Positions 2,019 to 46,187 of a stretch of 64,000 nucleotides of DNA are shown piece after piece. Numbering within the stretch: the stretch's first letter is position 1; each line of letters begins with the position of its first letter. The position numbers were made by a program, and so were the translations under genes. The notes under the pieces are model-generated. The model saw only the letters and a list, made by a program, of their open reading frames with translations. It did no database searches and was not told where the DNA came from. This stretch comes from an uncultured Candidatus Micrarchaeota archaeon (GTDB lineage Archaea; Micrarchaeota; Micrarchaeia; Burarchaeales; Fermentimicrarchaeaceae): contig CAVXDX010000008.1 in the NCBI GenBank assembly GCA_963760615.1, forward strand, positions 97,459-161,458. Direction: 5' to 3'.

Positions 2019-2618
2019 ATGGAGAGTATTGCTGGCGGGCGTGATGCATGGGGTATGAAGCCATTTGTGATATCTGATGGAAGGGCGCACTGCGAGGATG
2101 AGACGGGGCGTATTGAGCTGGAGCCCATAAAAGGCGATATTGTAGTCAGCAGAATGTCCAAGGTTGATAGGAGAATAGCCGTTGCGACGCACCTTACGTT
2201 AACGGAAGGTGAGAAAGCAGACAATGTAGTAATCAATGTTGAAGTAGATGGCAGGCAATTCGAAGTAAAACGCATAAAAGTTGAAGTTGACCCGAGAGAT
2301 ATTGTAAGATTCACCGGACCTTTTACCTGCAAGGTACCGGAAAATGAGCTTGGAGATGGGTTGAAAAAACTTGATGTTACATTGGAAGGGGCTCTTGATG
2401 ATAGTGGAAAAAGGCTGAAAACGATTTATTTTAAGGAGATTGTTGTGCTCTACGCTGGTAGATCCAATTTGCAAGTAATACTCAAAGAACCTGCGCTGAA
2501 AAAAATGGATATAGATGTAGGGGATTATGAGAAACAGCTTAGTAAATGCCTTGAGTCTCTCACAAATTTGGAGGAGATGAGGCGCAGTTCTGCGTTCAGA
2601 GAAAGGGCAAGAAGCTAG
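2019..2618 (+). CDS. hypothetical protein
   Basis: 199-aa intact ORF between infB and pyrF; no recognisable motif. Confidence 0.4.
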   Translation: MESIAGGRDAWGMKPFVISDGRAHCEDETGRIELEPIKGDIVVSRMSKVDRRIAVATHLTLTEGEKADNVVINVEVDGRQFEVKRIKVEVDPRDIVRFTGPFTCKVPENELGDGLKKLDVTLEGALDDSGKRLKTIYFKEIVVLYAGRSNLQVILKEPALKKMDIDVGDYEKQLSKCLESLTNLEEMRRSSAFRERARS

Positions 2619-2632
2619 TTGTTATAAGAAGC

Positions 2633-3349
2633 CTAACTGCCAGGTATGCTTCCCTTCATTACCTCCCTCAGCTTGTGGGACTCTTCCTTCGGATTTGCCG
2701 CGTCAAGGATGCTCCTTCCAACAATTGCGAAGTTTGCCCCCGCTTTGAATGCCTTCTCAGCATCACCCCCCTGGGCTCCTATACCCGGGGACAGAATCAG
2801 AATTTCGTTTCCTACCAATTTCCTTATAGTGGAGAGCAGCTCATATTGGTTGCCTGGGGCTATAACTCCCGCAACGTCAAGCTTCTTTGCCATTGCGGCA
2901 ATCTCCTCAACAACATCGTTCTTGAACATGTGGCCGGGGCTGCTCATTGCAGCAAGCAGGAAAACGCCTTTCTTCATTTTATTTGCTGTGCTAACAACTG
3001 CCTCCACAGCTTTTTCGCCCTGGAAGCCGTGGCATATTATGGCGTCATATCCCTTTGTGAAGTAGTATTCCGCCTTCATGGCATTGCTCTTGTCTATATC
3101 CGCAATTTTTGCGTCAAGTATCACCGGAACTCCATCTCCGACTCTTTTTAGGGTTAGGATTGCACTCTCGTGGGAGAAACCCCATATGTCAGCGTGCTCT
3201 GGTTGCACCTTCACTGCCGCTAAGTTCTTTGCCGATTCTGAAAGTACTCTCTGGGCCTTCTTCCAGTCAGCCGTGTCCAGCGCCAGTATAAGGGTTGAGT
3301 CCCTCGCCATTGCGTTCTGCAGAAATGCCTTCCGGTATTCATTTTGCAT
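2633..3349 (-). CDS. pyrF: orotidine 5'-phosphate decarboxylase
   Basis: 238 aa; ILALDT, DAKIADI, CHGFQG, FLLAAMSSPG, LSPGIGAQGGD, AIVGRSI align with archaeal OMP decarboxylase blocks; GGAGG Shine-Dalgarno upstream. Confidence 0.8.
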   Translation of the reverse strand: MQNEYRKAFLQNAMARDSTLILALDTADWKKAQRVLSESAKNLAAVKVQPEHADIWGFSHESAILTLKRVGDGVPVILDAKIADIDKSNAMKAEYYFTKGYDAIICHGFQGEKAVEAVVSTANKMKKGVFLLAAMSSPGHMFKNDVVEEIAAMAKKLDVAGVIAPGNQYELLSTIRKLVGNEILILSPGIGAQGGDAEKAFKAGANFAIVGRSILDAANPKEESHKLREVMKGSIPGS

Positions 3350-3418
3350 AAAAAACCTCCTTATAGGGTTTGGGGGGGTGAGTAATAAATAACTTTTGCA
3401 CGTTCGCGTGCCTTGCTC

Positions 3419-4027
3419 CTACACAGTGAAGTATTCACTGAATTTCTTCGTTGTCTTCAGCACCTTCGTCCTACCCTTCTTCTCTGCAGTGATGAACTGT
3501 GTTTCAACAAGCTCCTTTACATAGTCGTAGACGGATGAGCCGATCATCTTCGCAAGCTTTGACTGCGCCATTCCATCATTCTTTGCTATCACCGCAAGCG
3601 TCTTTATTGCACCTCTTGAAAGCTCCGCCTCCTTTGCCAAGCCGGACACTTTCCTCTCATACTCGGGCTTCAGCCTCATTATGTATCCTCCTTCCTCGAA
3701 AGATATCACAATGGCACTGCCTCTCTGCTCATACTCATTCTGCAGCTCCTTGAGCTTATCCTGCACAAGCTTCCAGGAGTTAAGACCGGAGATTTTGGAA
3801 AGTGTCCTCACAGTCATGGGAGAGGTGCTCATGAAAAGCGCAGCCTCGATAATGCTCTTTGCCTCAAGCATTTCCGGGGGAGCCTGCTCAGGGGGCTTCT
3901 GCTCCAGCTCCTCCTCTATAACTTCGTCAAGCTTCTCCCCTTCCTGCTTCTCCTTAGACTCTTCAACCTCCTCAGCTTCCTTCTCTATTTCCGAGATTTC
4001 CGTCTCTTCTGGTTTCTGCTCGTCCAT
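3419..4027 (-). CDS. scpB: segregation and condensation protein B (ScpB)
   Basis: 202 aa; acidic N-terminus then IEAALFMS...PMTVRTLSKI winged-helix ScpB signature. Confidence 0.75.
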   Translation of the reverse strand: MDEQKPEETEISEIEKEAEEVEESKEKQEGEKLDEVIEEELEQKPPEQAPPEMLEAKSIIEAALFMSTSPMTVRTLSKISGLNSWKLVQDKLKELQNEYEQRGSAIVISFEEGGYIMRLKPEYERKVSGLAKEAELSRGAIKTLAVIAKNDGMAQSKLAKMIGSSVYDYVKELVETQFITAEKKGRTKVLKTTKKFSEYFTV

Positions 4028-4085
4028 GCTTGAATTCTTATCCTCTAAGAATATTAACCTTTACTGTATTGGTTCCGATGCTGGT

Positions 4086-4125
4086 TTTAAATATTGAGAA
4101 TGAGCAATTTATGTGGTGATGTTTA
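4086..4125 (+). promoter_or_regulatory. second conserved promoter/5' block (TATA-N3-AAATGAGCAAATTT..GGTG.TG.TTATGG)
   Basis: GGTTTTAAATATTGAGAATGAGCAATTTATGTGGTGATGTTTACG here; GGTTTAAATACAGAAAATGAGCAAATTTAGATGGTGGTGTTTATGG at 5390-5435; weaker copy at 36346-36395. Confidence 0.55.
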
Positions 4126-4550
4126 CGCCAGTAAAGGAGAAAAAGCCAGAACAAGCGGACGAAGTGATGAAAGGAAAGACCGAAAAAGTTGGAGAAGTAA
4201 TGAAGGGAAAGCCCGAAAAGGTCGGAGAAGTGATGAAGAAGGAAAAGCCTCACTTTGCAGAAGCTATGAAGCGAATACGGGAGGAGGAGAAAGGAAAAGA
4301 AGCTGCACCAAAAACATTTTCTGAAGTCATGAAGAGAAGACTGGAAGAAGAGTCGGCCATATCTAAAAGGAGGCAGAAAAGAGAGAGTGAAGAAAGACTA
4401 ATAGCGCAGGAAAGGGAGAGGAAGCGCAGGGAAGTTCCGGAAGATGATAGGCATGACGGGGCTAGGAGAAGACAGGAACGTGAGAAGGAAGCAGACCGTA
4501 TAGAGCGAGAAAGAGCAATCAGGCGCGGGAAACGTGAAACTGAAGTTTGA
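4113..4550 (+). CDS. lysine/glutamate-rich repeat protein (EVMKGK-EKVG repeats)
   Basis: 145 aa, GTG start; about five EVMK(G/K)K-EKVG repeats then an R/E-rich tail; shares a promoter and 5' block with the gene at 5417. Confidence 0.5.
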   Translation: MVMFTPVKEKKPEQADEVMKGKTEKVGEVMKGKPEKVGEVMKKEKPHFAEAMKRIREEEKGKEAAPKTFSEVMKRRLEEESAISKRRQKRESEERLIAQERERKRREVPEDDRHDGARRRQEREKEADRIERERAIRRGKRETEV

Positions 4551-4632
4551 GCAGGAGACTAGAAGGAACCAAAGGGGTTTCTCTTGGGCAATCCTGAGTC
4601 ATCTAGGGCTTCTTTAGGCAAATCGGCATCAG

Positions 4633-5349
4633 CTAGGCTTCTGTTTTCTTCACATCCTCTTTTGTGGGCAGCTGTATGAATATCTCTCCAAAGAACTTCT
4701 CCTGAAAAACAGACAGCTTCCCGTCCTGGGCAAGATGCAGCACGGGCAGGAGGGTGTATATAATCTCCTTCCTGCTCCTCTCCTTCAGCAAGGATGAAAA
4801 TGTCACCAATCCTTTGGAGTCGGAGCATTTCTCCACCCTCTCGTAAATCTCCTTCATCCTCTGCGTTATGTCGTACTGGGGGATGTCTATCACCATCTTT
4901 TCCTTTATCACAGGCTTCTCCTGCTTCCTCCTCTGCTCCTCAAAGACTTCCTCCAAGGCTCCCATTAGCTCGTTCAACGTAACCTTCCTCTTCCTCGGTA
5001 TCCTTGTCCTCAGTGAAAGCATCGGTATCTCAACAGGCGCCTGCGCCTCGTCAATAAACGTCTGCTGCTCCACAACCTGCTCCTCCTCCTCAAATCGCAG
5101 GGCGTCGCTCTTGAAGCGCAGCAGTATCGAAGCGGCAAGGATGAGGTTTGCCGGCACCCGCAAGTCGAGCTTCTGGAGCTTCCTGACCCTCTCGAGGTAT
5201 TTGCTCGTTATATCCACAAGGTCAATATTCCAGGGGTCCAGCTTCTCGCTCACCACAAGGTCGAACAGCATCTCTCTCCAGGTGGGCTGCGCGACAAGCT
5301 TCTCCAAATCCACCTTTGCCTCTTTCTCCTCTGGTTTTTGCTCTTCCAT
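4633..5349 (-). CDS. scpA: segregation and condensation protein A (ScpA, kleisin)
   Basis: 238 aa; ...LDPWNIDLVDIT...LEL... ScpA N-terminal motif; N-terminus MEEQKPEE parallels ScpB. Confidence 0.75.
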   Translation of the reverse strand: MEEQKPEEKEAKVDLEKLVAQPTWREMLFDLVVSEKLDPWNIDLVDITSKYLERVRKLQKLDLRVPANLILAASILLRFKSDALRFEEEEQVVEQQTFIDEAQAPVEIPMLSLRTRIPRKRKVTLNELMGALEEVFEEQRRKQEKPVIKEKMVIDIPQYDITQRMKEIYERVEKCSDSKGLVTFSSLLKERSRKEIIYTLLPVLHLAQDGKLSVFQEKFFGEIFIQLPTKEDVKKTEA

Positions 5350-5416
5350 ACGAGGATTTTTTCACTCTGCACATTTATTAATGTAAGGTTTAAATACAGA
5401 AAATGAGCAAATTTAG

Positions 5417-5989
5417 ATGGTGGTGTTTATGGAAAAAGTTAAAGTTGATGGCAAAAGCACCATGAAGCTTGTAGAATTCGACACTATCAAGGTTGCAAGA
5501 GAAAAGGTGCCCAGCCAAGTGCTTGATGTTACGATGGAAAAGAAGGGTGAGATAGTCAGGAGAGGCAAGCTTTTTTTTGATATCCCTTCTCGAACTGACA
5601 AGCTGCGCCTTGACCTTGATATAGGATCTGGATGGGAATCTAACCTGACTATACTTTTCAATGCAAAACTCGAGAAGGGAGTGGATACGCCACAGAAATC
5701 ACCGCCTACCCTTTTAGAAGTTAAAATTGCAAGCCAGATGCCTACGCTGAGTATGGCTAGAAAACTTTTGGAGGAAGAACCAACGAATGCGCCTAAGGTC
5801 CCTGTTGTGAAGCTGGAATTGGTGAATATAGCCGGCGTTGGAACACACTCCAAATACTTTGACCTTGAAATTGGGAAAATAAAAACAAAGCTCGAGGACG
5901 CCATGAATAATACTCCGGAAGGGCGGGAACTGGTAATGACATTTGAATCTAGGCGTTCCGAGCTAAAACGAGCTGGAATACTGCACTAA
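5417..5989 (+). CDS. hypothetical protein
   Basis: 190-aa ORF; N-terminus MVVFMEKVKV and upstream 45 nt closely match the gene at 4113. Confidence 0.5.
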   Translation: MVVFMEKVKVDGKSTMKLVEFDTIKVAREKVPSQVLDVTMEKKGEIVRRGKLFFDIPSRTDKLRLDLDIGSGWESNLTILFNAKLEKGVDTPQKSPPTLLEVKIASQMPTLSMARKLLEEEPTNAPKVPVVKLELVNIAGVGTHSKYFDLEIGKIKTKLEDAMNNTPEGRELVMTFESRRSELKRAGILH

Positions 5990-6140
5990 ACATTTATTTT
6001 TAATTCTAGTTCTAACGTGCAGGGAGATTAGAAAGAACCGCAAGGTTCCTCTCCTGAGCCAATATTAACCTTTCCAGTTCCGGCACATCTCGCACAAGAA
6101 ACAGCACTTTCATCTCGGGCATAAGCAATACCGGTGAAAA

Positions 6141-6299
6141 CAGTGATTTCACCTCGGCAGTAAATCACTGGTAAATCGCCATAAAACTCGGTAAATCCCT
6201 CTTTCTCGCAAGCGTATAAATTACGTCGGGTAAATGCGGTAAATCCGCTCGCGTTGCGGAAAGGTCTGCCGTCGGAGTGATGGCAGTAGCGGATTTACT
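6141..6299. repeat. GTAAATC iteron-like repeat array in a 340-bp intergenic region
   Basis: GTAAATC(C/G) at about 6162, 6171, 6191, 6230, 6239 plus inverted AGCGGATTTAC at 6288; GGTGAAA-N7-TTTCACC inverted repeat at 6133-6153. Confidence 0.5.
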
Positions 6300-6329
6300 T
6301 TTCAGGAAGCTCCGGGTATTCCAGCAGGA

Positions 6330-7193
6330 CTACCTTCGGGATATTCCCAAGCTTGTCGATTGCTCTTTCTTCAGCATCTTCGAGTTGAAATGGTCGTAAA
6401 TCCTTATCACAGTGTCTGCTGCCGAAGCGACCACCTGTTCATACTCCTCCCTGCTTATCTCGCACTTTTCATCTACTCTGTGCGGAAGGTGGAACACGAA
6501 CCCTTCTAGGGCTACCTCGTAATGCTCATACAGCTCCTTGGCTATTGTCTTGTCGTCAGGATAGTCAAATCTTCGCAGAGATGCCCTAAGCTTGTCAATC
6601 CTTCTCAGAGGCTCGGCTCCAGGTGAACTCTGCCAAAGAGTTACATTAATGCCGGGTATTTTCAAATACTCCTCAAAGACTTCCTTTGAGTCTGCTTCGA
6701 CGTAAACAATTGGGTTGCTTTTCAGCTCGGTAGGCTTCGAGTTGCTGTAAACTAAATAAGGAGCATGTGTTGCTGGGCTGTAGTGTATGTCTACAATGAC
6801 GCTTGCACGCTCATCCCTTGCAGTTCCTAGCATTTCATTGTAAACTAGCAGATTATCGAAATTCTCCTTTTTGAAGAGCCTGTCCTGTTTCCTCATGCCG
6901 TAATCCTTTCCTGTTTTCATCCAGTGCAGGTCTATGACATCAGATGCATGCGTAAACGATTTCAGTTCGCAGACCTTTATGTCCCTCTCACCCTTGATTT
7001 TTTGAATTCGTTTCGCAACATCTTCCGTGAACTGCCTCTCAGGAGTGTGGGCGCCCCATGTCACGAGCATCGTTATGTATCTCCTTGCTTCCCCGACGTC
7101 CTGCGCGGCTTTCTCGAATTCTTTCTTATTCAGAATAGTCTTTATAGGTACGCTCCCCTCACCAGTCTCTGCGGTTTTGTGAATTCCATCCAT
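6330..7193 (-). CDS. hypothetical protein (cassette-promoter family member A)
   Basis: 287-aa ORF; start preceded by the conserved cassette CATGCCTGAATTATGCC...TATTTAAA. Confidence 0.5.
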   Translation of the reverse strand: MDGIHKTAETGEGSVPIKTILNKKEFEKAAQDVGEARRYITMLVTWGAHTPERQFTEDVAKRIQKIKGERDIKVCELKSFTHASDVIDLHWMKTGKDYGMRKQDRLFKKENFDNLLVYNEMLGTARDERASVIVDIHYSPATHAPYLVYSNSKPTELKSNPIVYVEADSKEVFEEYLKIPGINVTLWQSSPGAEPLRRIDKLRASLRRFDYPDDKTIAKELYEHYEVALEGFVFHLPHRVDEKCEISREEYEQVVASAADTVIRIYDHFNSKMLKKEQSTSLGISRR

Positions 7194-7268
7194 GCCTGAA
7201 TTATGCCTTTTCTTCTATTTAAACCCTAGAGAAGTCTATAAAGATTGTTATAAGGTAACTCCGGGAAC

Positions 7269-8279
7269 CTATCGCTCGACCAGCTCAACCCTCAAAAGTT
7301 TATTTTTTATGAACGAGTCCAAACGATCGGAAAGCTCACCTCCCAATCCGCTCGAGCTCATCCCAGACATTTTCAGCTCCTCTTGAAGCTTCCAATCTTC
7401 TAAATGCCCCCGCCCTCCATTTGCCCGGTCCAGCTCCACAATCAGCTTTTCTATCTCTCCCAGCCCTCCCTCCCTCTCGAATACTATTTCGTGCCATTTA
7501 GCTTCAAAAATTCTGGATGCTTCCTCAGGAGTTATAAAGCCCCTCTGGTCTATCCTATGCTCGATTTCAATAAACGCTTCCCCTATGATGGAAGGAAGCT
7601 TGCGTATTTCAGCATCAAATTCCGCCCTCTTCCCGCGTTCATACTTTATTCTTGTCATTTTCAGCGACTCCTTCTTCGGAGGTGATTCCAGCAAATGTAT
7701 GTCGGTCAGCTGCCCCAGGCTTATCCCCTGGTCCTCCAGATTCTTTACATTTGTGGAGATGGTATCCAGTCGGGTCTTGTTGACGAACTTTACTATATCC
7801 GCCATGGGGATCCGCGTCTCTTCCTTCAGCATGTTTATTATATCCCTTTCAACCTCATCAAGAAAACTGCTGAATTCCGCAGGCGCTTTTGTCAGGAGGC
7901 CCTGCCGGGCGTACTCCGCTGGGTTCCTCCCTCGCGTTTCCAGAGCCATTATGTTAGCCTCAAGGTTAATCGGGGTTGCCCCTAGGAGCGACAGCGAGGG
8001 AATGGAGCATATCTTGTGCCTATCAAAAATCTGCATATTCTTCTCAATCTTATCCATTGAAGCGTGCTTTAGAAGGTTGCTTATGCCCTCAACGGAAGCA
8101 CTCTCCACTCTGCTTTTTATTATCCGGATAGTCTCCCTGTCTCCCTTCGGGCGGCTGTCTGCTAAGGCCTTTGCATCACCCCAGCGCATGTAAAGGTCTC
8201 TCATCAGCCATTTTTCAAACTCCCCTCTGCTCATAAGCCTGGTATCCTTCCCTTCAGTTTTGACCTGCTCGGCGCACAT
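7269..8279 (-). CDS. hypothetical protein (cassette-promoter family member B)
   Basis: 336-aa ORF; cassette at 8280-8312; 14-bp palindrome at 8350-8363. Confidence 0.5.
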   Translation of the reverse strand: MCAEQVKTEGKDTRLMSRGEFEKWLMRDLYMRWGDAKALADSRPKGDRETIRIIKSRVESASVEGISNLLKHASMDKIEKNMQIFDRHKICSIPSLSLLGATPINLEANIMALETRGRNPAEYARQGLLTKAPAEFSSFLDEVERDIINMLKEETRIPMADIVKFVNKTRLDTISTNVKNLEDQGISLGQLTDIHLLESPPKKESLKMTRIKYERGKRAEFDAEIRKLPSIIGEAFIEIEHRIDQRGFITPEEASRIFEAKWHEIVFEREGGLGEIEKLIVELDRANGGRGHLEDWKLQEELKMSGMSSSGLGGELSDRLDSFIKNKLLRVELVER

Positions 8280-8349
8280 GGTTAGATTATGGCTTTTTCG
8301 ATATTTAAGCTTGTTCGATTAACACCGGCAAATCGTAACTTTCGGTTAT

Positions 8350-8363
8350 GTAACCATGGTTAC
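8350..8363. promoter_or_regulatory. perfect 14-bp palindrome GTAACCATGGTTAC upstream of ORF 7269..8279
   Basis: Exact palindrome; identical copy at 11628-11641. Confidence 0.6.
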
Positions 8364-8373
8364 ATCTAACCTC

Positions 8374-9426
8374 TCAACCCATCTTATCAGGAAGCTTCGG
8401 TGCCTTCCTTATCAGCTCGTCAATGTCGGTTATGCCTGTCTTAAACTTCTCCAGGCTTACCCCATACATCTTCACTTCCTTCTGGCCCACCACAACAAGA
8501 TTAGCCTCCTCTATTCCTAGAAACAAGCCCCTCGCTTTGCATCTCTTTTCAAAATCATCCAATCTCTCTTTACCAACTATTGCCTGCAATGTGTAATAAT
8601 CCCTGAAACCCTCGCTGTATCTCCTTGCCTTGCCTGCTTCGTCCCTCCATACGTCAAAATTCAAATATTTATCCTGAGGGTGATCATAGTCCCCCATCCC
8701 ATGTTTATGTTTATAAAATGCAGGGAGAGGAGTTGCTATTTTATCCATAAAACTTATAGCATAAAACGCCCTGACAAATGCATCCTTGCTGCTGAGCAAT
8801 TCAGTCTCGGCGAAAGTGGCTTTGCCTTCGCTGTACCTCTGCATAGCCCTCCGCAGCCTTTTTGCATCCTCACCCCCAGTACGGAATTTATGTAAATCCT
8901 CCCAAAAAAGAGCCAGCCTACGGGCACTTTCATCACGTATATGGTCCATCTCGTGCAATATTGCTCCAATCGACGAAATGGCGGATTCCTGCGCGTAATA
9001 CAGCACTCGGGTGCCGTCCTTCTCACGGCTTCCATGCCAATCTCCGTCATAAGATTTGAGTATTCTCAAACCTTGAGTTTCCATCCCATGATTTTTCTTT
9101 ACATACTCAAGTACCTGCATAAAGTGATCCCTTGACTGGATTGAGAGGGGCAAATTGTTCTCTTCAGCAAAGTGGTTATCAAGATACCGAACTAGCGGGC
9201 TGTTGCCTAACCGGAACATTCTGCCTGCCTTTATAGTCTCGCTGTATCTGTACGGATCCTTTATTTCCTTCAGCCTCTCTCTCGCCCAGTCTCCCATCCA
9301 CGCCTTTACTTCCTTTTGTTTCTCCAATGTGCCCAGCGCCTCATCAGCTATCTTCCAGCATTTTTCATAGAGTCCCTTGGCTTCTTCGCTTAAAACCAGC
9401 TCGCTTGACTTTGTAGCTGTTACCAT
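8374..9426 (-). CDS. HExxH zincin-like putative metallopeptidase (family member C)
   Basis: 350 aa; HEMDH followed 12 residues later by W, as in ORFs 10639..11589 and 45159..46139; cassette promoter. Confidence 0.5.
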   Translation of the reverse strand: MVTATKSSELVLSEEAKGLYEKCWKIADEALGTLEKQKEVKAWMGDWARERLKEIKDPYRYSETIKAGRMFRLGNSPLVRYLDNHFAEENNLPLSIQSRDHFMQVLEYVKKNHGMETQGLRILKSYDGDWHGSREKDGTRVLYYAQESAISSIGAILHEMDHIRDESARRLALFWEDLHKFRTGGEDAKRLRRAMQRYSEGKATFAETELLSSKDAFVRAFYAISFMDKIATPLPAFYKHKHGMGDYDHPQDKYLNFDVWRDEAGKARRYSEGFRDYYTLQAIVGKERLDDFEKRCKARGLFLGIEEANLVVVGQKEVKMYGVSLEKFKTGITDIDELIRKAPKLPDKMG

Positions 9427-9566
9427 GCCTAAATTATGCCTCTTTTGATATATTAAGATTACTTTGGAAGTTGGAATCTGAACTCAAAAGTAACTGCCCG
9501 CCCTTGGCATCCTGAACTGAAATGTTAATGCCCAGCTGTAGCTTTGAACTGAAATAGTCAAGAACC

Positions 9567-9701
9567 TTAATATACTCCTGAATAACAGACCACCTTTTTT
9601 ATCTTTCTAGTTCCAACCGTTCCGTCAGGAAGAATAAATGCCTTATATCTAGCCCTTCGCTTCTTTTCCCGCTTATAAATGCAACCTCTTGGAGCTTTCA
9701 T
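9567..9701 (-). CDS. small basic protein (44 aa)
   Basis: Not in the ORF track (under 60 aa); AGGTGGT Shine-Dalgarno 5 nt before ATG; MKAPRGCIYKREKKRRARYKAF...; co-directional downstream of the CxxCxxCC gene. Confidence 0.3.
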   Translation of the reverse strand: MKAPRGCIYKREKKRRARYKAFILPDGTVGTRKIKKVVCYSGVY

Positions 9702-9764
9702 TTATACCACCTCTATTTTTTAACTTCTTTTTTTGTTAATTCATCTTTTTGTTTCGTCATGATT

Positions 9765-10196
9765 TCACTCCCACAATTTTTTAATTACCTCATCAACAGT
9801 TATCGTTTCAAAAATTGGGCAGTCCTTTTTTTCAAAGTCTATTATCTTCTGTATCTTTTCCCTGTTCCATTTTTCTACTCCTCTGAATAAGTTATCTGGG
9901 CCGATAGCACAGAAATCAGGTCTTTCCTTATCCCAAACCGAGCAGTAATATTTTCCGTCTTTCATATATAGTTTAGCACACTCTTTTTTGAATGTTATCT
10001 GCTTCATGTCGAGTCCATCCCCAAATGTAAAAGGCGTGTCCTCTGTGATCTCTGTGATAATTGTATTATCGAGCATCCATCTAAACCTAAGTGCGGAGTC
10101 TAAAGTATCGTATAGAGTATATTCCTTGCAACACTTGGCACATCTTTGGCATATCTCCGAGTTTGCCAATTTGCTTTTGTTCCCGATTATTGTCAT
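9765..10196 (-). CDS. CxxCxxCC putative zinc/iron-chelating domain protein (YkgJ-like)
   Basis: 143 aa; CQRCAKCC motif plus additional Cys; start overlaps the TBP stop by 4 nt (ATGA). Confidence 0.55.
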   Translation of the reverse strand: MTIIGNKSKLANSEICQRCAKCCKEYTLYDTLDSALRFRWMLDNTIITEITEDTPFTFGDGLDMKQITFKKECAKLYMKDGKYYCSVWDKERPDFCAIGPDNLFRGVEKWNREKIQKIIDFEKKDCPIFETITVDEVIKKLWE

Positions 10197-10507
10197 CTGC
10201 TCACCTTCTTGGGGACTGGCAGAGGTTTTGTATGGGGAGCCAGTAGCTTTATCGCTCGCTCTAAGGCATACTTCACTTCTCTCTCATTCTTGCAGCCTGT
10301 GCATATTACCTTGCCGTTCTTGAAGAGCAGAAGAGATGCCTTTGGATCTTTGAACTTGAGTATTGCACCTGGGAACTGCTCTGGCTCATACTCCACATTC
10401 CTGATTTTGCTGGCAATAGTGTAAAGGTCAAGCTCCACTCCCAGATTGGCTGAAGCTACTATGTTCTCTATCTTGAACGATGGATCAATTGTAAGTTTCT
10501 TTGTCAA
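10193..10507 (-). CDS. single-repeat TATA-box-binding protein (one TBP domain only)
   Basis: 104 aa, TTG start; KIENIVASANLGVELDL...VEYEPEQFPGAI...DPKASLLLFKNGKVICTGCK is unmistakable TBP repeat sequence; no second repeat upstream or downstream. Confidence 0.7.
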   Translation of the reverse strand: MTKKLTIDPSFKIENIVASANLGVELDLYTIASKIRNVEYEPEQFPGAILKFKDPKASLLLFKNGKVICTGCKNEREVKYALERAIKLLAPHTKPLPVPKKVSR

Positions 10508-10638
10508 TGAAACACCTTCTCTGCCCCTTCCAGCCCATTTCTACTTAAAACCACCTGTTAGATGCCTCCCACCATACTCTCACTCATCAAATAGTTCTGT
10601 TCTGTAGTATATTAAGATTGCTTTGGCTTGAGAATAAG

Positions 10639-11589
10639 CTAAACCCTCCCTTCCTTCAGATCTCTCAGATACTCATCCGGATGATCTATGTGCCTCATGG
10701 TAAGAGGAGGATGTTTAATCGTGTATTTGATTGGGTTTTCCCCGGTTTTTTTCTCTATATACCCCAAGAACGCCATGCCCTTGGAATTTAGAGGTTGCTC
10801 CTCGTCCTCCTTAAGCAGTGTGGACTGTCTCATAGCCTTGTAGGAGTAACCAAATTTGCTTATAACCCGGTACCCGGCGTAGTATGCAATGCCCTCGTCG
10901 AAAGCTTGCCGGGCGTCAATCCCGTCTCTGACTATCTGCCATCTCGCCTCCATAGCTTCCTCATCCCCTGCTAGTTCAGAGTGGATTTTTACCTGCTCAC
11001 GTATGGAGTCTACAGACCAGTTCGCAACCTCAGGAATATTCTCCTTGATTGTTTGGTGCAGCTGCTCGTGGACAAAAGTGTTAAGGACAAGAAACCTCTC
11101 GATTCTCTTCCCTTCCTCGCTGTTTGGGCTGACTAGTTGCACTGCGCACTGCAGTCTAAACAGCTCTTCAATGTTGTCCCGCACAATATATGCGGTATTT
11201 TGCTCAGAGCTGAAAAAACCGGAAGTAGCTCTAAAAATGCTGGGCATATCGAAATCAACACCTTCCATTATCTCCCGTCTGAGCTCTTCGAGGAGAGTCT
11301 TATCGGACATGAACTTTTTGGATGTCGAGTAGAACTCTTCCTGCGTCATTTTCGTCGCTTCATCCCTGCTAATGAATTTTATGCTTATCTCGCCTTTTTT
11401 AAAACTCGTACTTACTTTCATCCCTGTTATGTCTTCGATACGTTTTGCAACTTGCATTATTTCGTATTTCGAAGGCACGTATAGCTCGGTTGGTGGAGAA
11501 GCAGATTCGCTATTAGTTTTATCTGCACCATGAAGTCTGATTATATGGTCCTTTATGTTCGTATCAGCTGATGGCTTAACAGTCCACAT
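10639..11589 (-). CDS. HExxH zincin-like putative metallopeptidase (family member D)
   Basis: 316 aa; HEQLH-x12-W and FDEGIAYYAGY (EGxAxY-like); cassette promoter at 11590-11622; palindrome at 11628-11641. Confidence 0.5.
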   Translation of the reverse strand: MWTVKPSADTNIKDHIIRLHGADKTNSESASPPTELYVPSKYEIMQVAKRIEDITGMKVSTSFKKGEISIKFISRDEATKMTQEEFYSTSKKFMSDKTLLEELRREIMEGVDFDMPSIFRATSGFFSSEQNTAYIVRDNIEELFRLQCAVQLVSPNSEEGKRIERFLVLNTFVHEQLHQTIKENIPEVANWSVDSIREQVKIHSELAGDEEAMEARWQIVRDGIDARQAFDEGIAYYAGYRVISKFGYSYKAMRQSTLLKEDEEQPLNSKGMAFLGYIEKKTGENPIKYTIKHPPLTMRHIDHPDEYLRDLKEGRV

Positions 11590-11622
11590 GCTGAGATTAT
11601 GCCTCTTTCAATATTTAAGCTT
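11590..11622 (-). promoter_or_regulatory. conserved promoter cassette (TATA + GGCATAATCTnRRC) directly preceding ATG
   Basis: Coding strand CTTAAATATTGAAAGAGGCATAATCTCAGC-ATG; near-identical at 7194-7232, 8280-8312, 9427-9462, 46140-46172; weaker at 13986-14020 and 30207-30243. Confidence 0.6.
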
Positions 11623-11627
11623 GCTTT

Positions 11628-11641
11628 GTAACCATGGTTAC
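11628..11641. promoter_or_regulatory. perfect 14-bp palindrome GTAACCATGGTTAC abutting the TATA box of ORF 10639..11589
   Basis: Exact palindrome 8 nt upstream of TATA (ATATTTAAG at 11611-11619). Confidence 0.6.
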
Positions 11642-11721
11642 ATTCTCCGCCAAATCTCATCTTCGCTTTGGTATTAGCCTGTTTCTCGGCAGATTTAAAT
11701 ATCAGAAATGGCGTAATTTAA

Positions 11722-12186
11722 GTGCTGAGATTTATGGTAACAACTGTGATGGATGAACCAAAAATGCGGGTAGAAATGCAAAGGAAATACTTTAAAGAAA
11801 AAGATTACAAAGTGGTAGAAGTTCCTAGAAGCAGGCTGGGTGAACTGTCCCACATATGGAGCCTGCTGCCAAGGATCGGGTATGACGAAGGCAAACCTCA
11901 GCCCAGTATGATTCCTGTCGGTTTTGTAAAAAAAGAAGACGAAAAATGGCATCTTTTGGGTGTAGTAAAGCATCAGGATGTATTGCATCATGTACCAGGA
12001 TCATCGGATTTGTTTGTAGAACCGCTAACAGGGAAATTAAGCATAACTCCAAAACCCCAAGACGATATAACACGAAATATGGTTGAGGTTCTTGTTGCAA
12101 GGCTTCCAGAGCCATTAAAAACCAAGCTGTATGAAGCAGCCCTAAAGCATGCGGATTTAGGCAGGGATATGTTCGTAAAGGATTAG
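11722..12186 (+). CDS. hypothetical protein
   Basis: 154-aa ORF. Confidence 0.4.
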   Translation: MLRFMVTTVMDEPKMRVEMQRKYFKEKDYKVVEVPRSRLGELSHIWSLLPRIGYDEGKPQPSMIPVGFVKKEDEKWHLLGVVKHQDVLHHVPGSSDLFVEPLTGKLSITPKPQDDITRNMVEVLVARLPEPLKTKLYEAALKHADLGRDMFVKD

Positions 12187-12198
12187 GACACCGCCAGA

Positions 12199-12756
12199 TT
12201 ACAGCTCTCCCTTCATCTTCTCAAGCAGAAAATCAAATCTAGTAAAGCCCGCTTCCTCGTTGATATGCCCCGCATTCTTCAGGATAATCAGTTCTGCTTT
12301 GAGGTTTTTTGCAAGATTTCTGCCCTGCTCAAGTGGTACATAGGGGTCGTTATCTGAGTTCATCACATAGAACTTTCCGCAGTTTCTCCTTATTTTATTC
12401 CAGTCGAACTGCTTTCCCACGAATGTTCCAATAAATTCATCAAACTCCGGGTTATCCAGAGGAGTTGTGAAACCTGCGACAAAAAAAGCCGCCTTAACAG
12501 GTTTATCCAGTCTTTCAATCACGCTAAGAAGGAATGCAACTCCCAGGCTGTGACCGACAACAATGGAGTTTTCCAGCTGAGGCTTATACTTTTCAAATGC
12601 ATCCAGCCAGTTCTGCAGCTTCGGGTCTTCGGGGTTGGGAAGCTGCGGGACAAGCACTCTGCAGCCCAGCTTCTTCAGCTCATTTTTAAGCCAAGGAAGC
12701 CAGTTCTCAGAGGGGCTTCCGCCAATGCCGTGTATAATGAAGACGTTAGTCATCAC
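12199..12756 (-). CDS. alpha/beta serine hydrolase (RBBP9/YdeN-like)
   Basis: 185 aa; IIHGIGGSP, GHSLG nucleophile elbow, late AGH catalytic His. Confidence 0.6.
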   Translation of the reverse strand: MMTNVFIIHGIGGSPSENWLPWLKNELKKLGCRVLVPQLPNPEDPKLQNWLDAFEKYKPQLENSIVVGHSLGVAFLLSVIERLDKPVKAAFFVAGFTTPLDNPEFDEFIGTFVGKQFDWNKIRRNCGKFYVMNSDNDPYVPLEQGRNLAKNLKAELIILKNAGHINEEAGFTRFDFLLEKMKGEL

Positions 12757-13769
12757 AAAACCTTGAAATCCACCACAACCTGCACAATTCCGGGAGCGAA
12801 AGGCCTCACTATCCTCTTCCCGATTATTTCCGCCTTTCTCCCGCTGAGCTTTGCTTCGCTTATGACAAGCCTCTCAGCATCCTCAAACGGGTTTTTCTCA
12901 GGGGCAAACTGGTATATGTGTATTACGCAGTTCTTCCTTGCCGCAAGGAAAGCTTCTGAAAGGAATTTCTCAGCCCCTTTTGGGAGAGGCATTAGAATCC
13001 TGTCCGCGGAATTCACAAATTTTTTCGGAATGATATCCTTAACATCTCCCAGTATGGGAGTTATCATCTCCTGCATCCTGTTCAGCCTTATGTTTTCTTG
13101 CATGTACTTGAATGCAACAGGATTCAGCTCTATTGCTTCAATTTTCACCCTCGGCTGCATTTTGGTAATCACTATGGGAAAGGGCCCCACTCCAGCAAAC
13201 ATTGCAAGGATTTTCTCTCCAGGCTTCACCTGTTCTGCAATTCTTTCCCTCTCGAAAGACAGCCTTGGGGTGAAGTAAACTTTCGCAACATCAAGCCGGA
13301 ACCTGCAGCCATTCTCCTTGTACTCCGCAACCGTCCTTTTCTCGCCTGCGAGGAACTTCAGCTTCCTTATCCTGTACACACCTTCCATGGGCCCGAGCTT
13401 CTTGTAGACTGATTTGACATTCCTGTGCACGCTGAGCAAAGAATCTGCAATGAGCTTCTCCTTTTTCTCAAGCTCCTTGGGAATTTCAACTATTGCAATA
13501 TCTCCGATAACATCGAAAGACTTCACTACCGAGTTGAGCTCTTCCGCTGTTAATTTACCTTTCAAGCTCTCCTCAAGCGAGAGGACTCGTGGGGCTCTTT
13601 TCTCAAGCTTCTTTTCAATGAGCTTGAAGCTCTTGAATCCGCCCTTCAGAGGGAAGTAAATTCCTGTTGGCTCAGCTTTGGGGGAATAACTGTTGTCAAG
13701 CAAGTTTAGCGAGATGAGCTCTTTTCTGACTCTCTCCGCGTCTTTTCTCTTAACGAGTATGCATTTCAT
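12753..13769 (-). CDS. trm5: tRNA (guanine37-N1)-methyltransferase Trm5 (Met-10+ family)
   Basis: 338 aa; DMFAGVGPF SAM-binding motif and overall Trm5/TYW2 architecture. Confidence 0.7.
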   Translation of the reverse strand: MKCILVKRKDAERVRKELISLNLLDNSYSPKAEPTGIYFPLKGGFKSFKLIEKKLEKRAPRVLSLEESLKGKLTAEELNSVVKSFDVIGDIAIVEIPKELEKKEKLIADSLLSVHRNVKSVYKKLGPMEGVYRIRKLKFLAGEKRTVAEYKENGCRFRLDVAKVYFTPRLSFERERIAEQVKPGEKILAMFAGVGPFPIVITKMQPRVKIEAIELNPVAFKYMQENIRLNRMQEMITPILGDVKDIIPKKFVNSADRILMPLPKGAEKFLSEAFLAARKNCVIHIYQFAPEKNPFEDAERLVISEAKLSGRKAEIIGKRIVRPFAPGIVQVVVDFKVL

Positions 13770-13826
13770 AAGGTATATTTAAGGAGTAAACTCTTTAATT
13801 CATTTCTTAGAATGGGGGGAATTGCT

Positions 13827-13985
13827 CTACTCAAGTTTTCCCCTAAGTTTCTTTGCGACTTTCTCAGCTGGTCCTGAGAGTGATATTTCCGACGCCTCTC
13901 TGTTTACACCAGGGGCATGTGTTACGAATTGTGGCTCCTCAACTATCTTCTGATGCCTTTTTAGTGTTCCTGACACGAGTATCAC
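13827..13985 (-). CDS. small hypothetical protein (52 aa, GTG start) carrying the cassette promoter
   Basis: GAATTATGCC...TACTATTTAAAAG cassette at 13986-14020 directly upstream; ORF under 60 aa so absent from the track. Confidence 0.3.
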   Translation of the reverse strand: MILVSGTLKRHQKIVEEPQFVTHAPGVNREASEISLSGPAEKVAKKLRGKLE

Positions 13986-14071
13986 CAGTTTGAATTATGC
14001 CGTTTATACTATTTAAAAGCACTGGATACCACACCGAAGAAAGCTTTAATATTCACAGGTAAAATTATGTT

Positions 14072-14938
14072 ATGGAGAATGAAGCGAAAGGCTCTCTGCT
14101 CATTGTATTGGCATGTCTCATGTACAGTTTCATAGGGGTTTTCTCGAGGTTTGCAGGCATAAACTTATTCGCTCTGGTTTTCTACAAGGAAGTGCTCGCT
14201 GCGCTCTTCTTTTTCTTCATATTTCTTTTTGCCCGCAAGGATGCGGGTAAGTTGAAGATGAATTGGGAGATGGCGAAATTTTTCATCCCCTACGCGCTTG
14301 TCGTTACCATAACTGAAGTGACGTTCATTGGAGCGTATCTGAACACAAGTATGATAAACGCTATATTCTTGGGTGGCCTGACTCCAGTATTTGTTGCTGT
14401 GCTATCCTTCTTCTTTCTGAAAGAGAAGTTGAACCTAACAACACTTCTCTCTTTGATTCTTGGGGTTACGGGAATAGGTTTCATTGCGGGAGCTGACCTG
14501 CTTGGCGTGCTTAATGGGAAAAACCTCCTTGGAGATGCTCTGGCAGTGATTTATGCCATAGCCTACGCCGTCTTTATCATATACGGGAGGGAAAGGGCGA
14601 AGAGGAAGGTGGATATCTACTATTCTGTTTTCTGGTCGTATGCAATTGCAGCTCTTTTCCTACTCCCAGTTGATTTGGTGTATGGCACACTGGCAATCCC
14701 ATTGGAATCAGTGGTATGGATTGTGCTGCTAGCTTTCCTATGTACGAATATAGCCTTCATCCTATTCTGCAAGGGCTTTGAGTATATTGATGCGCCGAAG
14801 GGCAGCATAGTTACGTTGGCAGAGCAGGTGTTTGTGACTATCAATGCATTCCTTTTCTTTGGGGAGAACCTGAGTCTTTTCGCGGTTATAGGCGCAGTTC
14901 TAATCTGCTCTTCAGTTGTTCTGGAAGAGATGAGATAA
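14072..14938 (+). CDS. EamA/DMT-family transporter
   Basis: 288 aa, about 10 TM helices in two halves. Confidence 0.6.
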   Translation: MENEAKGSLLIVLACLMYSFIGVFSRFAGINLFALVFYKEVLAALFFFFIFLFARKDAGKLKMNWEMAKFFIPYALVVTITEVTFIGAYLNTSMINAIFLGGLTPVFVAVLSFFFLKEKLNLTTLLSLILGVTGIGFIAGADLLGVLNGKNLLGDALAVIYAIAYAVFIIYGRERAKRKVDIYYSVFWSYAIAALFLLPVDLVYGTLAIPLESVVWIVLLAFLCTNIAFILFCKGFEYIDAPKGSIVTLAEQVFVTINAFLFFGENLSLFAVIGAVLICSSVVLEEMR

Positions 14939-14940
14939 GT

Positions 14941-17775
14941 TCATTCAAAGAATATTGAAGGTTTCATTGGCGTTGACTGCACTGCTTTCTTCGCATGCGC
15001 TTCCTGAGCCTTCTCCTCAGGCAGCACATATACATCGGCATTCAGCTCGCTTGAGAGGAACTTCTTCGCACTTTCAAGCGCATCCATCTCCTGCCTGAGA
15101 GTTAGAACCAGTGGGGAAAGGTGACCTACGTTCTTGGTTAGCTGCTGGAGAACCCTCTGCGTTTCCTGGGGGTTGGCCCTCATCCTGTCGTCGTTCATGG
15201 CTTGCTTCATCACAACATCGAACTTCTTCTCCTTGTATGCCATGGAGTAAAGCTTCCTCTTCCATTCCGATGCGCAGTATATGTATATGTTCCTCGGGGT
15301 GACCTTGGTTATCTTCAGAATAGTCTCAATGTCATCCCTTGTTCTGGAGATGAGCTCCTCTGAGAGGTCGGCAGTTTTGTCTATTTTTGTCTCATCACAC
15401 TTGGGCCATTCTGCAATGGAGACAAAGCTGGAGTCATCCACAAACTCCTTCTTGCCGAGCTTTTCCCACATCTCCTCAGAGAAGTGCGGCATGAACGGGG
15501 TGAGCAGCAGCAGGAGGTATTCCAGGTATTCGCGAAGAACATTGCGGTTCTTCCCACCTCTCCTCAGGTACAACTTCAGCTCGCTCACGGAGCTGTATAA
15601 TGCCTCCTGCGCAATGTCGCGCAGCTCCAGCTTCCTGTAGAGCTCTTCCGATGCTTTTACCTTCCCGTGCATCGCTGAGAGAAGCCATCGGTCAACTGCA
15701 TTGCCCTCCTGCGTGAATTCATTGCATCTTTCAACCAGAGTGGCAATGAAGCTCATCCTTGAAGCTATGCCCTCCGCCATGGTGGAGTTGAAGTCTGCAT
15801 CCTGCGAGAGGTCCGCACCGGAGACAACAGAGAAGCGCACAACGTCCGTGCCGTATTTCTTTATGGCCTCCCTGAGCGGGAGTATGTTGCCCATGCTCTT
15901 GCTCATCTTCTTGCCTTCCATGAGCACGAAGCCGTTTGTCGCTATCTGCCTGGGCCACAGCTCAGGAGGGAATATGGCAACGTGGTTGAAAAGGAAAAAT
16001 GTGAGGTGGTTGTGAATCAAGTCTCCTGCAGAGTGCCTTGAGTCGAGCGGATACCAGTAAAGGAACTCCTCCCTCATCCTGTTGAGGAGCTGCTCATCGA
16101 TTCCTGATGTAAAGGAGAGCTTCTTGGAATCGCCCTTTCCAAGGAGAACGCAATCGAAGAACTCCGGGGAGAGCTTCTCTGCATCCACATTCTTGAGGTA
16201 GTGCGAGATTGTGTAGAATGCCATGTATATAGTGGAGTCTGAGAGTGATTCGATTATCTGTTTCTTGTCGAACGGGAAGGGTGTGCCAAGCCCGCTAGCC
16301 CTCACGCATGCTTTTTCCTTGAGCCAGTCAATTGTGTACTCGTACTCAACAACTGTCTTTTCCGGTATTATGTTAACCTGTTTCAGGCATTCCTTCACCT
16401 GCTCTTTCCATTGTTCATCTCCGTAGTTGATGAACCACTGTCCCTCAACCCTCTTGACGACGCAGAGAGTGCCGCATCTGCAGTATACAGGGCCGTTTAT
16501 TATGTCGTATATGAGAAGTGCTTTTCCCTCTGCAAGCATATCCTGCTTTATCTTCTCCTTTGCAATGAGCGCCCTTTCTCCCCTGTACTTGCCGAGCATC
16601 ATCCTTCCTCCATGCGCCTCCGCCCTGTAGAGCTCCTCTGTTGCCTGCGCAGCCTTGGGATCCTTCTGGTTCGCAACCTCAAGCCTCTCTGAAATCTCCC
16701 TAGCTGGATATTTCCCATAACCACTAAGCTCTATAACCTGAATCATTCTATCCGAGTAGCTCTCAAAGGAAGTCTCCTTCAAATCCCTCAAAGCGAGGAA
16801 GTCGTAAGGTGCGTGGGCTGGCACGCTCATCACAACCCCGGAGCCGTTCCTGGGGTCAACGAAGTCGGCAGGCAGTATGGGTATCTCTTCCCCGGTCATT
16901 GGGTTTTTGCAGGTCCTGCCTATGAGCTCTACTGCCCTCATCTGCTCCTTCACCTCAAGCTTCATCTGGTGCTTCATTTTCTCAGCCGCGTCAGAAGAAA
17001 CAATATAACTCTCCCCATTGCTCTCAACTCTGACATAATTCACTGCAGGGTTCACCCATAGGTTTGTCACACCGTATATTGTTTCAGGCCTAAAAGTGGC
17101 AGTGAGCAGGTAGTAGTTCCCAAATTTGAATTTTATGAGCACATACTCGTCAATGTTGGGGTCCACATCGCCTTGTGTATCGTGGGAGCCCACTGCATTG
17201 TTATCCTTGGGGCACCAGGGGACAGGATGGCTGCCCTTCGTGAGATAGCCTTTCTCGTTCAGCTTCATGAACTGCCACTCTATGAACTTGTTGAACATCT
17301 TGTCATAGGTATAGAACTTCCTCCTCCAGTCTATGGAGAAGCCCATCTCCCTCATGCCAAGCTCGATTTCCCTGCTGAAGTAATCAACAAGCTTCTCGGG
17401 AGTATTCAACTGTGAGATGATATGCTCGGGAATGTTGTAGATGTTCTTGAAAATCTCGCATATCTCCTTGTCTCCTTCCGCAATTCTCTTAGCCATGGCA
17501 AGCACAGGCGTGCCAGTGACATGGAAGCCCATTGGGAAGAGCACGTTATACCCCTTCATCCTCATGAAGCGCGCGTAGACATCTGTTGTTGTATATGTTC
17601 TTGCATGCCCTATGTGCTGCGGTGAGTTGGGGTAGGGAAAGGCAGCCGTGAGGAAGAACTTCCTCACCTCACTTACATCTGGCTCGAAAATCTTGGCATC
17701 TGCCCATCTCTTCTGCCATTTCTGCTCAATCTCATGGAATTCCATGGGTACCACATAGTTATTTGCAGGGAGCAT
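14941..17775 (-). CDS. leuS: leucyl-tRNA synthetase (archaeal type)
   Basis: 944 aa; HIGH-region variant PYPNSPQHIGHARTY, KMSKS, CP1 editing domain. Confidence 0.85.
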   Translation of the reverse strand: MLPANNYVVPMEFHEIEQKWQKRWADAKIFEPDVSEVRKFFLTAAFPYPNSPQHIGHARTYTTTDVYARFMRMKGYNVLFPMGFHVTGTPVLAMAKRIAEGDKEICEIFKNIYNIPEHIISQLNTPEKLVDYFSREIELGMREMGFSIDWRRKFYTYDKMFNKFIEWQFMKLNEKGYLTKGSHPVPWCPKDNNAVGSHDTQGDVDPNIDEYVLIKFKFGNYYLLTATFRPETIYGVTNLWVNPAVNYVRVESNGESYIVSSDAAEKMKHQMKLEVKEQMRAVELIGRTCKNPMTGEEIPILPADFVDPRNGSGVVMSVPAHAPYDFLALRDLKETSFESYSDRMIQVIELSGYGKYPAREISERLEVANQKDPKAAQATEELYRAEAHGGRMMLGKYRGERALIAKEKIKQDMLAEGKALLIYDIINGPVYCRCGTLCVVKRVEGQWFINYGDEQWKEQVKECLKQVNIIPEKTVVEYEYTIDWLKEKACVRASGLGTPFPFDKKQIIESLSDSTIYMAFYTISHYLKNVDAEKLSPEFFDCVLLGKGDSKKLSFTSGIDEQLLNRMREEFLYWYPLDSRHSAGDLIHNHLTFFLFNHVAIFPPELWPRQIATNGFVLMEGKKMSKSMGNILPLREAIKKYGTDVVRFSVVSGADLSQDADFNSTMAEGIASRMSFIATLVERCNEFTQEGNAVDRWLLSAMHGKVKASEELYRKLELRDIAQEALYSSVSELKLYLRRGGKNRNVLREYLEYLLLLLTPFMPHFSEEMWEKLGKKEFVDDSSFVSIAEWPKCDETKIDKTADLSEELISRTRDDIETILKITKVTPRNIYIYCASEWKRKLYSMAYKEKKFDVVMKQAMNDDRMRANPQETQRVLQQLTKNVGHLSPLVLTLRQEMDALESAKKFLSSELNADVYVLPEEKAQEAHAKKAVQSTPMKPSIFFE

Positions 17776-17783
17776 TTAATAAT

Positions 17784-18686
17784 TTATAGAAAAGCGCTGC
17801 AGAAGCTCCAGAAGTTCTCCCCAAGAGTCTGGGCGTAGTAGCCTCCTTCAAGCACTGCAAATGTTCTTGCTCCGAGCTTCTCTGCCTGCTTTCTTATCAT
17901 GCTTCCTATTTTTTTGTATGTTGCGCTGTCCCGTATGTCTATTGCATTCCCGCAGGAGTAGTCCTTGTAGAAGGTGTCAAAGCCGACGCTCACTCCTATG
18001 AGCTGTGGCTTGAATTCCTCTGAGTATTTTGGGAAATTTCCTTCAAAAATTTTGAGGTATTCTGCATCGGTTGTTTCCGGCTGCAGGACTACATTTTTTA
18101 TGTGCTTGTTATTCTCACGCTCAAAGCCCGAACTCCACGGGAAGCATGTATTTGGGTCTTGGTGGAAGGAGAGGTAGAAAACCCTCTTGTCGTTGTAGAA
18201 TATATCCTGCGTTCCGTTGCCGTGGTGCTGGTCTATGTCAACAATCATTGCGCTCTCTGTTTTTGTTGCAATAACCGACGCAACAGCAAATGCAATATTA
18301 TTCAAATAGCAGAAGCCCCCGAATGCATTCCTGCTTGCGTGGTGCCCCGGAGGCCTGATGAGGGCAAAAGAGAAGCCCTTTTCAGAGTTTTCCGCAGCCT
18401 TGAGAGCCCCGCCCGCAGCAAGCTTGGCGATGTTGAATGTATTGCTTGAGAATGGGTTGTCGCCCCCTCCCTGCTGCATGTCTGAGAGGAATTTCAGCCT
18501 CTCAATATACTCTTCATCATGCACAATATAGAGGTCCCTTATCGGCAATTTCCTTGGGCTTATCAAAGGTTACTGGAAGGTTATTCTCCTTCAGGTATTT
18601 GACTATTGCAATGAGCCTCTGCGGGTTTTCGGGGTGGCCTGCCCCAGTTTCATGCTCCAGGAATCTATCGGAATAGACGATTTTCA
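17784..18686 (-). pseudogene. histone deacetylase-family protein (AcuC/HDAC-like) with one frameshift
   Basis: Main frame (17784..18566) has RPPGHHA and DIDQHHGNG; N-terminus MKIVYSDRFLEHETGAGHPENPQRL is in another frame (18686 down to ~18540), requiring a 1-nt indel near 18545. Confidence 0.6.
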
Positions 18687-18732
18687 TAAAACCACAATGC
18701 CAAAGCTGCGCTTCACATGCTAGGCTGGCCTT

Positions 18733-18876
18733 TTAATCTTCCTCTTCTTCCTCCTCTTCCTCTTCTTCCGCCTCTGCGTCTTCTTCCTCGTGCTCTTTCT
18801 CTTCCTCGTCCTTCCCGGTCTCTTCATCCTCTTTTGCTCTGAAGCCGCATTCCCAGATTATAAGTTGTTCATTCAT
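18733..18876 (-). CDS. small ORF with poly-Glu/Asp tail (47 aa)
   Basis: MNEQLIIWECGFRAKEDEE... then E/D-rich tail; codon repetition could also be non-coding. Confidence 0.2.
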   Translation of the reverse strand: MNEQLIIWECGFRAKEDEETGKDEEEKEHEEEDAEAEEEEEEEEEED

Positions 18877-18899
18877 ATTCACCACCAATCAAATACCAG

Positions 18900-18986
18900 C
18901 GCCAGGGGTGAGATTTGAACTCACACTCCCCGTAAGGGGAACCAGATCTCAAGTCTGGCGCATTGACCAGATTCTGCCACCCTGGC
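18900..18986 (-). tRNA. tRNA-Ser (anticodon TGA)
   Basis: Cloverleaf by eye: acceptor GCCAGGG/CCCTGGC, anticodon loop CTTGAGA, long variable arm, T-arm GTGAG-TTCAAAT-CTCAC. Confidence 0.8.
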
Positions 18987-46139: not shown

Positions 46140-46187
46140 GCTTAGATTATGCCTTTTGCTTTATTTAAATAGTGAAGTTTACCGGTA

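Follow-up and report, generated by a model that had tools for sequence, protein, structure and literature searches.

Three open reading frames (ORFs) of an uncultured Candidatus Micrarchaeota archaeon encode proteins with an HExxH motif, which raises two questions: are these proteins zinc metallopeptidases, and do they form one family? The ORFs lie in a stretch of 64,000 nucleotides (contig CAVXDX010000008.1, positions 97,459 to 161,458), the whole of which is called the window here. A reading made from the letters alone (the sequence-only reading) took ORFs A, B, and C for fast-evolving cytoplasmic paralogs, possibly of an unnamed archaeal family, sharing an HExxH-x11/12-W signature and a "cassette promoter". 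Our verdict is that they are three new, very narrowly distributed families inside a well-known enzyme clan. We put the probability at about 60% that A, B, and C are soluble zinc metallohydrolases of the gluzincin type (MEROPS clan MA, thermolysin-like catalytic domain) and that each stands for a separate, lineage-restricted family.

Zinc motifs and their conservation

The three ORFs and the motifs HEMDH, HEQLH, and HELIH were verified at the following positions.

8374..9426, minus strand: ORF A (family A), 350 residues
8941..8955: HEMDH of A, residues 158-162
8806..8829: EGKATFAE of A, part of RYSEGKATFAE, with E200 inside
10639..11589, minus strand: ORF B (family B), 316 residues
11056..11070: HEQLH of B, residues 174-178
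10873..10899: DEGIAYYAG of B, with E232 inside
45159..46139, minus strand: ORF C (family C), 326 residues
45555..45569: HELIH of C, residues 191-195
45480..45500: GDFLYDP of C, a thermolysin-like [E/D]xxxD motif 20 residues past the second His

Among the 65 window ORFs of at least 150 residues, only A, B, and C contain HExxH. The EGxAxY-like segment FDEGIAYYAGY claimed for B was confirmed through DEGIAYYAG. The predicted lack of a signal peptide also stood, with no hydrophobic segment found in A, B, or C (maximum Kyte–Doolittle mean over 19 residues ≤1.1). The window is archaeal, encoding a TBP-repeat protein, the ribosomal proteins S3Ae and S13/S15, and NAC, and each of the three genes is present on a 212,721-bp contig in NCBI, ENA, and Logan.

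Among 5.8 billion proteins, one relative was found for A (56% identity), three for B (48–52%), and five for C (25–60%). An exhaustive HMMER search of 1.84 billion representative proteins yielded 17 real members of family A; a further candidate, P0029, was rejected as a false positive (an acyl-carrier-protein repeat protein). The family alignments comprised 15 full-length members for A, 5 sequences for B, and 6 for C. HExxH was invariant in all three alignments, and invariant or nearly so across the relatives. In each family, an acidic motif was conserved together with it. For A this was RYxEGxA, where H158, E159, and H162 were invariant and E200, G201, and A203 were at least 90% conserved. For B it was DEG[IV]AxY with an invariant E232, and for C it was G[E/D]FLYDP with an invariant FLYDP. 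Across the six aligned C sequences, position 215 is either Asp, as in the window, or Glu, as in most relatives. The intact frames and the conserved HExxH of relatives at 25–57% identity indicate that A, B, and C are real genes.

The relatives of A and B come from a few sediment-type metagenomes. Family B has five known sequences in total; a metagenome scan with its profile returned nothing beyond the three loci already known, and viral contigs scanned with the A and B profiles gave no matches. For C, scanning genomes with its profile yielded two loci. Family C also occurs in a Micrarchaeota metagenome-assembled genome (MAG; L006), in a Gracilibacteria MAG (L005), and on a 65-kb bacterial contig (L020) carrying the bacterial genes DnaB, YbeY, and DUF881. 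Because bacterial contigs of the candidate-phyla-radiation type carry it, family C is not specific to archaea, and the suggestion of an archaeal family fails for this protein. Family C is thus common to DPANN-type archaea and candidate-phyla-radiation-type bacteria, both ultra-small putative episymbionts. This distribution hints at inter-domain transfer or at a common function linked to lifestyle.

The best-conserved stretches of family A are its extreme N-terminus, M-A-A-T-A-T-K-x-S-E-x-V-L-S-E-E (window 9385..9426), and its extreme C-terminus, ELIGK-APKLPEKMG (window 8377..8418). The most conserved part of family B is the C-terminus, HPPxTMRHIxHPDEYLKDLKEG. These termini of A and B could be docking or regulatory tails; alternatively, the constraint on the N-terminus of family A could stem from leaderless translation initiation.

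Predicted fold and closest known systems

Structure prediction for C gave a model with a predicted local distance difference test score (pLDDT) of 73 and a predicted template modeling score (pTM) of 0.75, and all five models fell within pLDDT 70–73. In the models of both B and C, a beta-strand region is succeeded by a long helix with HExxH, and the next long helix carries the candidate third zinc ligand (E232 in helix 210-260 of B; position 215 in helix 209-218 of C). This is the order of elements in the gluzincin fold: beta-sheet subdomain, active-site helix, glutamate helix. The acidic residue of C, within [E/D]FLYD, is located exactly 20 residues past the second His. Thermolysin has the arrangement E166-x-x-x-D170, which the C motif mirrors. 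The invariant E208 of C remains an alternative third ligand to D215. By predicted fold, B and C are thus gluzincin-like, as the sequence-only reading proposed, and A is a probable member, as suggested by its motif conservation and its link to B.

In the mechanism that we propose, the zinc ion would be held by the two His residues of HExxH and by an acidic residue on the second helix, as is standard for gluzincins; the acidic ligand would be E200 in A, E232 in B, and D215 in C. The Glu of HExxH would activate a zinc-bound water, leading to cleavage of a peptide bond in a cytoplasmic substrate. The default role would be cytoplasmic peptide or protein turnover in a small-genome archaeon.

One of the closest known systems is PDB entry 3cmn from Chloroflexus aurantiacus, an uncharacterised structural-genomics entry described as a "putative hydrolase with a novel fold"; looking up 3CMN and DUF2268 in the literature yielded nothing usable. 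The catalytic domain of the M1 aminopeptidases (ERAP1, LTA4H, aminopeptidase N, tricorn factor F3) is also among the closest systems. In contrast to M1, the three proteins have no Pfam Peptidase_M1 match (E ≤ 1), and their spacing between HExxH and the acidic residue is at least 37 in A, 53 in B, and 19 in C, whereas it is 18 in M1. The GxMEN exopeptidase motif was not seen in the alignments, and the N-terminal and C-terminal domains of M1 are absent. A third group of close systems is formed by the thermolysin-type peptidases (M4; also M30 lugdulysin and M36). Identity to these is only 6–13%, Pfam M4 does not match, a signal peptide and a propeptide are missing, and the C-terminal helical part differs; moreover, the candidate ligand is Asp in window C and Gln in one relative, whereas thermolysin has Glu.

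Fusion and gene neighborhood of A and B

A probable functional link between A and B emerged from P0022, a 690-residue protein that begins with a full-length A-family sequence and continues with a full-length one of family B (36% identity to window B). Its ORF is identical in three independent assemblies (JGI, ENA, Logan). The window encodes both on one strand, at a distance of 1.2 kb that holds the TBP-repeat gene and a CxxCxxCC gene. Because they are fused as one polypeptide in another organism, A and B most likely act together, either as two partner proteins or as the halves of a single enzyme.

The neighborhoods of A and B raise the possibility of a more specialized function. Relatives of both genes sit among orphan genes that have their own promoters, and the gene order is shuffled between related contigs. 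Directly downstream of A in the window is a 336-residue ORF (7269..8279, minus strand) with a weak winged-helix match (HTH_24, 3.5e-4; LrpA/ChrS-like). An AbrB/MazE-domain protein adjoins the B ortholog in contig L002 and an A-family gene in L013, and Fic is encoded downstream of A in L016 and, in L007 and L008, downstream of the A–B fusion. The proteins could then be regulatory proteases of a variable gene island that cleave neighboring DNA-binding proteins in the manner of ImmA/IrrE, or part of a toxin–antitoxin or conflict module. ImmA/IrrE (M78, COG2856), also among the closest known systems, is a regulatory zinc peptidase with a conserved Xre-type repressor partner, which it cleaves; it is likewise a small cytoplasmic HExxH protein encoded beside DNA-binding proteins. 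However, neither Pfam nor PADLOC gave a match to it, and no prominent structural match was seen; the adjacent DNA-binding proteins vary in type (winged helix, AbrB/MazE) and lack conservation between loci. This context is compatible with a regulatory or conflict-related role for A and B but is no proof of it, and we regard this explanation as doubtful.

A related and equally tentative idea combines the fusion with the context. A and B would be the halves of an undescribed two-zincin enzyme of a small archaeal clade, encoded in a shuffling orphan-gene island with AbrB/MazE, winged-helix, and Fic neighbors, and would work as a regulatory or conflict protease pair, not as a housekeeping peptidase. 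For C, the context is not conserved across its loci; in the window, it is a stand-alone gene with ribosomal protein S3Ae and NAC on either side.

Points against the zincin assignment

Several results weigh against the assignment of the three families to clan MA. Scans against Pfam, NCBIfam, PADLOC, and PHROGs, with both the proteins and the family alignments, gave no credible match for A, B, or C, and sequence and profile searches of the PDB returned only compositional matches to designed repeat proteins and other noise. Hence no profile library assigns any of the three to the clan by sequence. The model of B is weak (pLDDT 65, pTM 0.65; 35–55 for the remaining four models). A Foldseek comparison of this model with the PDB gave no match: the best E value was 1.7, and 3cmn did not appear in the list. 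The third ligand proposed for C varies: the window protein has Asp there, and the Micrarchaeota relative (L006) has Gln. Structure prediction covered B and C, and A was assigned from two short motifs and the A–B fusion.

These points leave room for the explanation that one or more of the proteins, A above all, is not a zincin. HExxH would then be a chance or non-catalytic occurrence in a helical protein, and the motif itself would have drawn the models of B and C toward the zincin fold. It is stated in PMC3650047 that about half of all HExxH occurrences lie outside known domains. On the other side stand the invariant HExxH, the co-conserved acidic motifs, and the predicted fold of B and C described above, and we consider this explanation unlikely.

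Relationship between the three families

The sequence-only reading had presented A, B, and C as one fast-evolving, lineage-specific family expanded in this genome, recognizable by HExxH-x11/12-W and a downstream "A/D-AF" block. Several features seem to speak for it. The proteins have similar lengths (316–350 residues) with the motif near the middle, and the promoter variant AGGCATAATyT is common to their genes. EGxAxF/Y is found in both A and B, with hhalign E values of 0.03–0.24. The Trp follows the second His at 12 residues in A, 12 in B, and 11 in C, which places it at +12 or +13 from the motif in all three proteins. The post hoc P value for the shared Trp alone is ~0.003, and that for any shared rare residue is ~0.15.

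Inspection of the orthologs changed this picture. The Trp is indeed present in all three window proteins, but it is unconserved among the relatives of A and C: it occurs in 1 of 15 aligned sequences in A and in 1 of 6 in C, each time only in the window protein. In family B, it is found in 3 of 5 sequences. Since it is absent from the orthologs, we treat the shared Trp as a coincidence. The "A/D-AF" block dissolved on alignment; it lies ahead of the presumed zinc ligand in B and behind it in A, and "AF" varies inside families B and C. When A, B, and C were anchored at HExxH, four residues were common to them within ±1 position, as compared to 5.0 ± 2.2 for shuffled flanks.

Direct comparisons gave the same result. 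All pairwise BLASTP E values exceeded 0.3, and hhalign between the families returned probabilities of 0.2–1.6% with shallow profiles, with deeper ones, and with a trimmed catalytic-core profile of A. The hhalign scores were compared with those of 24 column-shuffled alignments per pair and of reversed alignments. For A/B, the real score was 19.9 (shuffled 15.3 ± 2.4; 1 of 24 shuffles reached or exceeded the real score). For A/C, it was 15.4 (14.1 ± 2.3; 7 of 24), and for B/C, it was 16.9 (13.8 ± 1.7; 1 of 24), with a reversed control of 16.6. The real scores fell inside the shuffled distributions or at their edge and were not significant. The sole alignment that recurred was a 20-residue stretch at the EGxA motif of A and B. 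Cross-searches with hidden Markov models over the whole window and every fetched locus revealed no cross-family matches and no further paralogs. A, B, and C are therefore separate families that are not detectably similar beyond the zinc motif. The paralogy explanation is largely refuted at the sequence level, and we judge it very unlikely. As separate families, the three would have common ancestry at the clan level only, with no recent duplication.

The explanation that the proteins have a zincin fold but are not peptidases, serving another hydrolase chemistry or a non-catalytic scaffold (cf. the epoxide hydrolase LTA4H and TAF2), is highly improbable, given that the strict conservation of the catalytic Glu of HExxH in all families favors catalysis.

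Promoter module

A near-identical 32-nt segment abuts the ATG of A, B, and C on the upstream side. The segments and a palindrome found close to B and to ORF 7269..8279 are as follows.

9427..9458, minus strand: promoter/initiator module of A, TCTTAATATATCAAAAGAGGCATAATTTAGGC, followed directly by ATG
11590..11621, minus strand: promoter/initiator module of B, AGCTTAAATATTGAAAGAGGCATAATCTCAGC, followed directly by ATG
46140..46171, minus strand: promoter/initiator module of C, TATTTAAATAAAGCAAAAGGCATAATCTAAGC, followed directly by ATG
8349..8364: palindrome TGTAACCATGGTTACA, copy 1, upstream of ORF 7269..8279 (winged-helix-like protein)
11627..11642: palindrome TGTAACCATGGTTACA, copy 2, immediately upstream of the TATA element of B

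The pattern TTAAATA(T)-N5-AAnAG(G/C)CATAATyTnnnC stands right before the ATG of A, B, C, and the unrelated neighboring ORFs 6330..7193 and 7269..8279; the latter two have the same AGGCATAAT promoter variant as A, B, and C. The TATA-like element starts ~30 nt ahead of the ATG (for A, an octamer at 30 nt). In archaea, the TATA box is expected ~30 nt from the transcription start. Because the TATA-to-ATG spacing matches this distance, the transcripts are probably leaderless. A, B, and C would each be transcribed from their own copy of a TATA-plus-initiator module that is common in this organism.

The module is real before all three genes, but it is not specific to them. In its general form (TTTAAATA, ~20 conserved nucleotides, ATG), it precedes at least ten window genes on both strands, nine of them within 3.4–12.2 kb. 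Close variants (TTTAAATA..GAAAATGAGCAAATTTAG-ATG) were found before ScpB (3419..4027) and before 4113..4550, 5417..5989, and 11722..12186. On the related contig L002, the module stands before at least eight genes (2400..19000), including the B ortholog. Many housekeeping genes of the window have GGAGG- or GGTGA-type (Shine–Dalgarno-like) leaders instead. As the module also precedes ScpB, several orphan genes, and many L002 genes, its interpretation as a "cassette" mark tied to the zincin genes was rejected; it is a general promoter type of the lineage.

The conservation between TATA and ATG is far above that usual for archaeal promoters. The module of the B gene seems to be more similar between the two contigs than the B protein is (48% identity). 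The palindrome TGTAACCATGGTTACA is perfect over its 16 bp, has exactly two copies in the window, as compared to 0.13 expected, and is a candidate operator site.

Other genes near A and B

A 617-residue orphan protein with HENSH is encoded near B on L002 (11805..13658) and shows weak matches to Peptidase_M49 (6e-4) and DUF7897. Its homolog adjoins A on L016 (1..1578). This protein may represent a fourth zincin-like family of the clade. In the window, the 287-residue orphan ORF 6330..7193 (minus strand) contains HTPE and DIH, which resemble M14/AstE-like zinc hydrolase motifs by eye only; it had no profile match.

Between A and B, a 104-residue ORF with a TTG start (10193..10507, minus strand) encodes a single TBP repeat (Pfam TBP, 4.2e-30), which matches either half of the ~185-residue archaeal TBPs of NCBIfam. 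A second repeat has no room here: B extends down to 10639, and the stop of the TBP-repeat ORF is overlapped by the CxxCxxCC ORF. A stand-alone half-TBP is unusual; it could function as a homodimer. A very basic 44-codon ORF (~9567..9701, minus strand; MKAPRGCIYKREKKRRARYKAF...) lies between A and the CxxCxxCC gene, and the gene calls of the Logan assembly L001 include it (639..773).

Significance

The comparison carries a point of method: a short motif and one coincident Trp in a single genome are insufficient for paralogy, and conservation among orthologs is the test. If the predictions hold, A, B, and C would add to clan MA three metallopeptidase families that are catalogued in none of Pfam, NCBIfam, PHROGs, and PADLOC. 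Each is represented by only ~5–18 sequence clusters in databases of billions of proteins. The understanding of zincins would be unchanged. The three families would be a small addition to the zinc peptidases of small-genome archaea and, for C, also of candidate-phyla-radiation bacteria, and the A–B fusion would provide one testable functional link.

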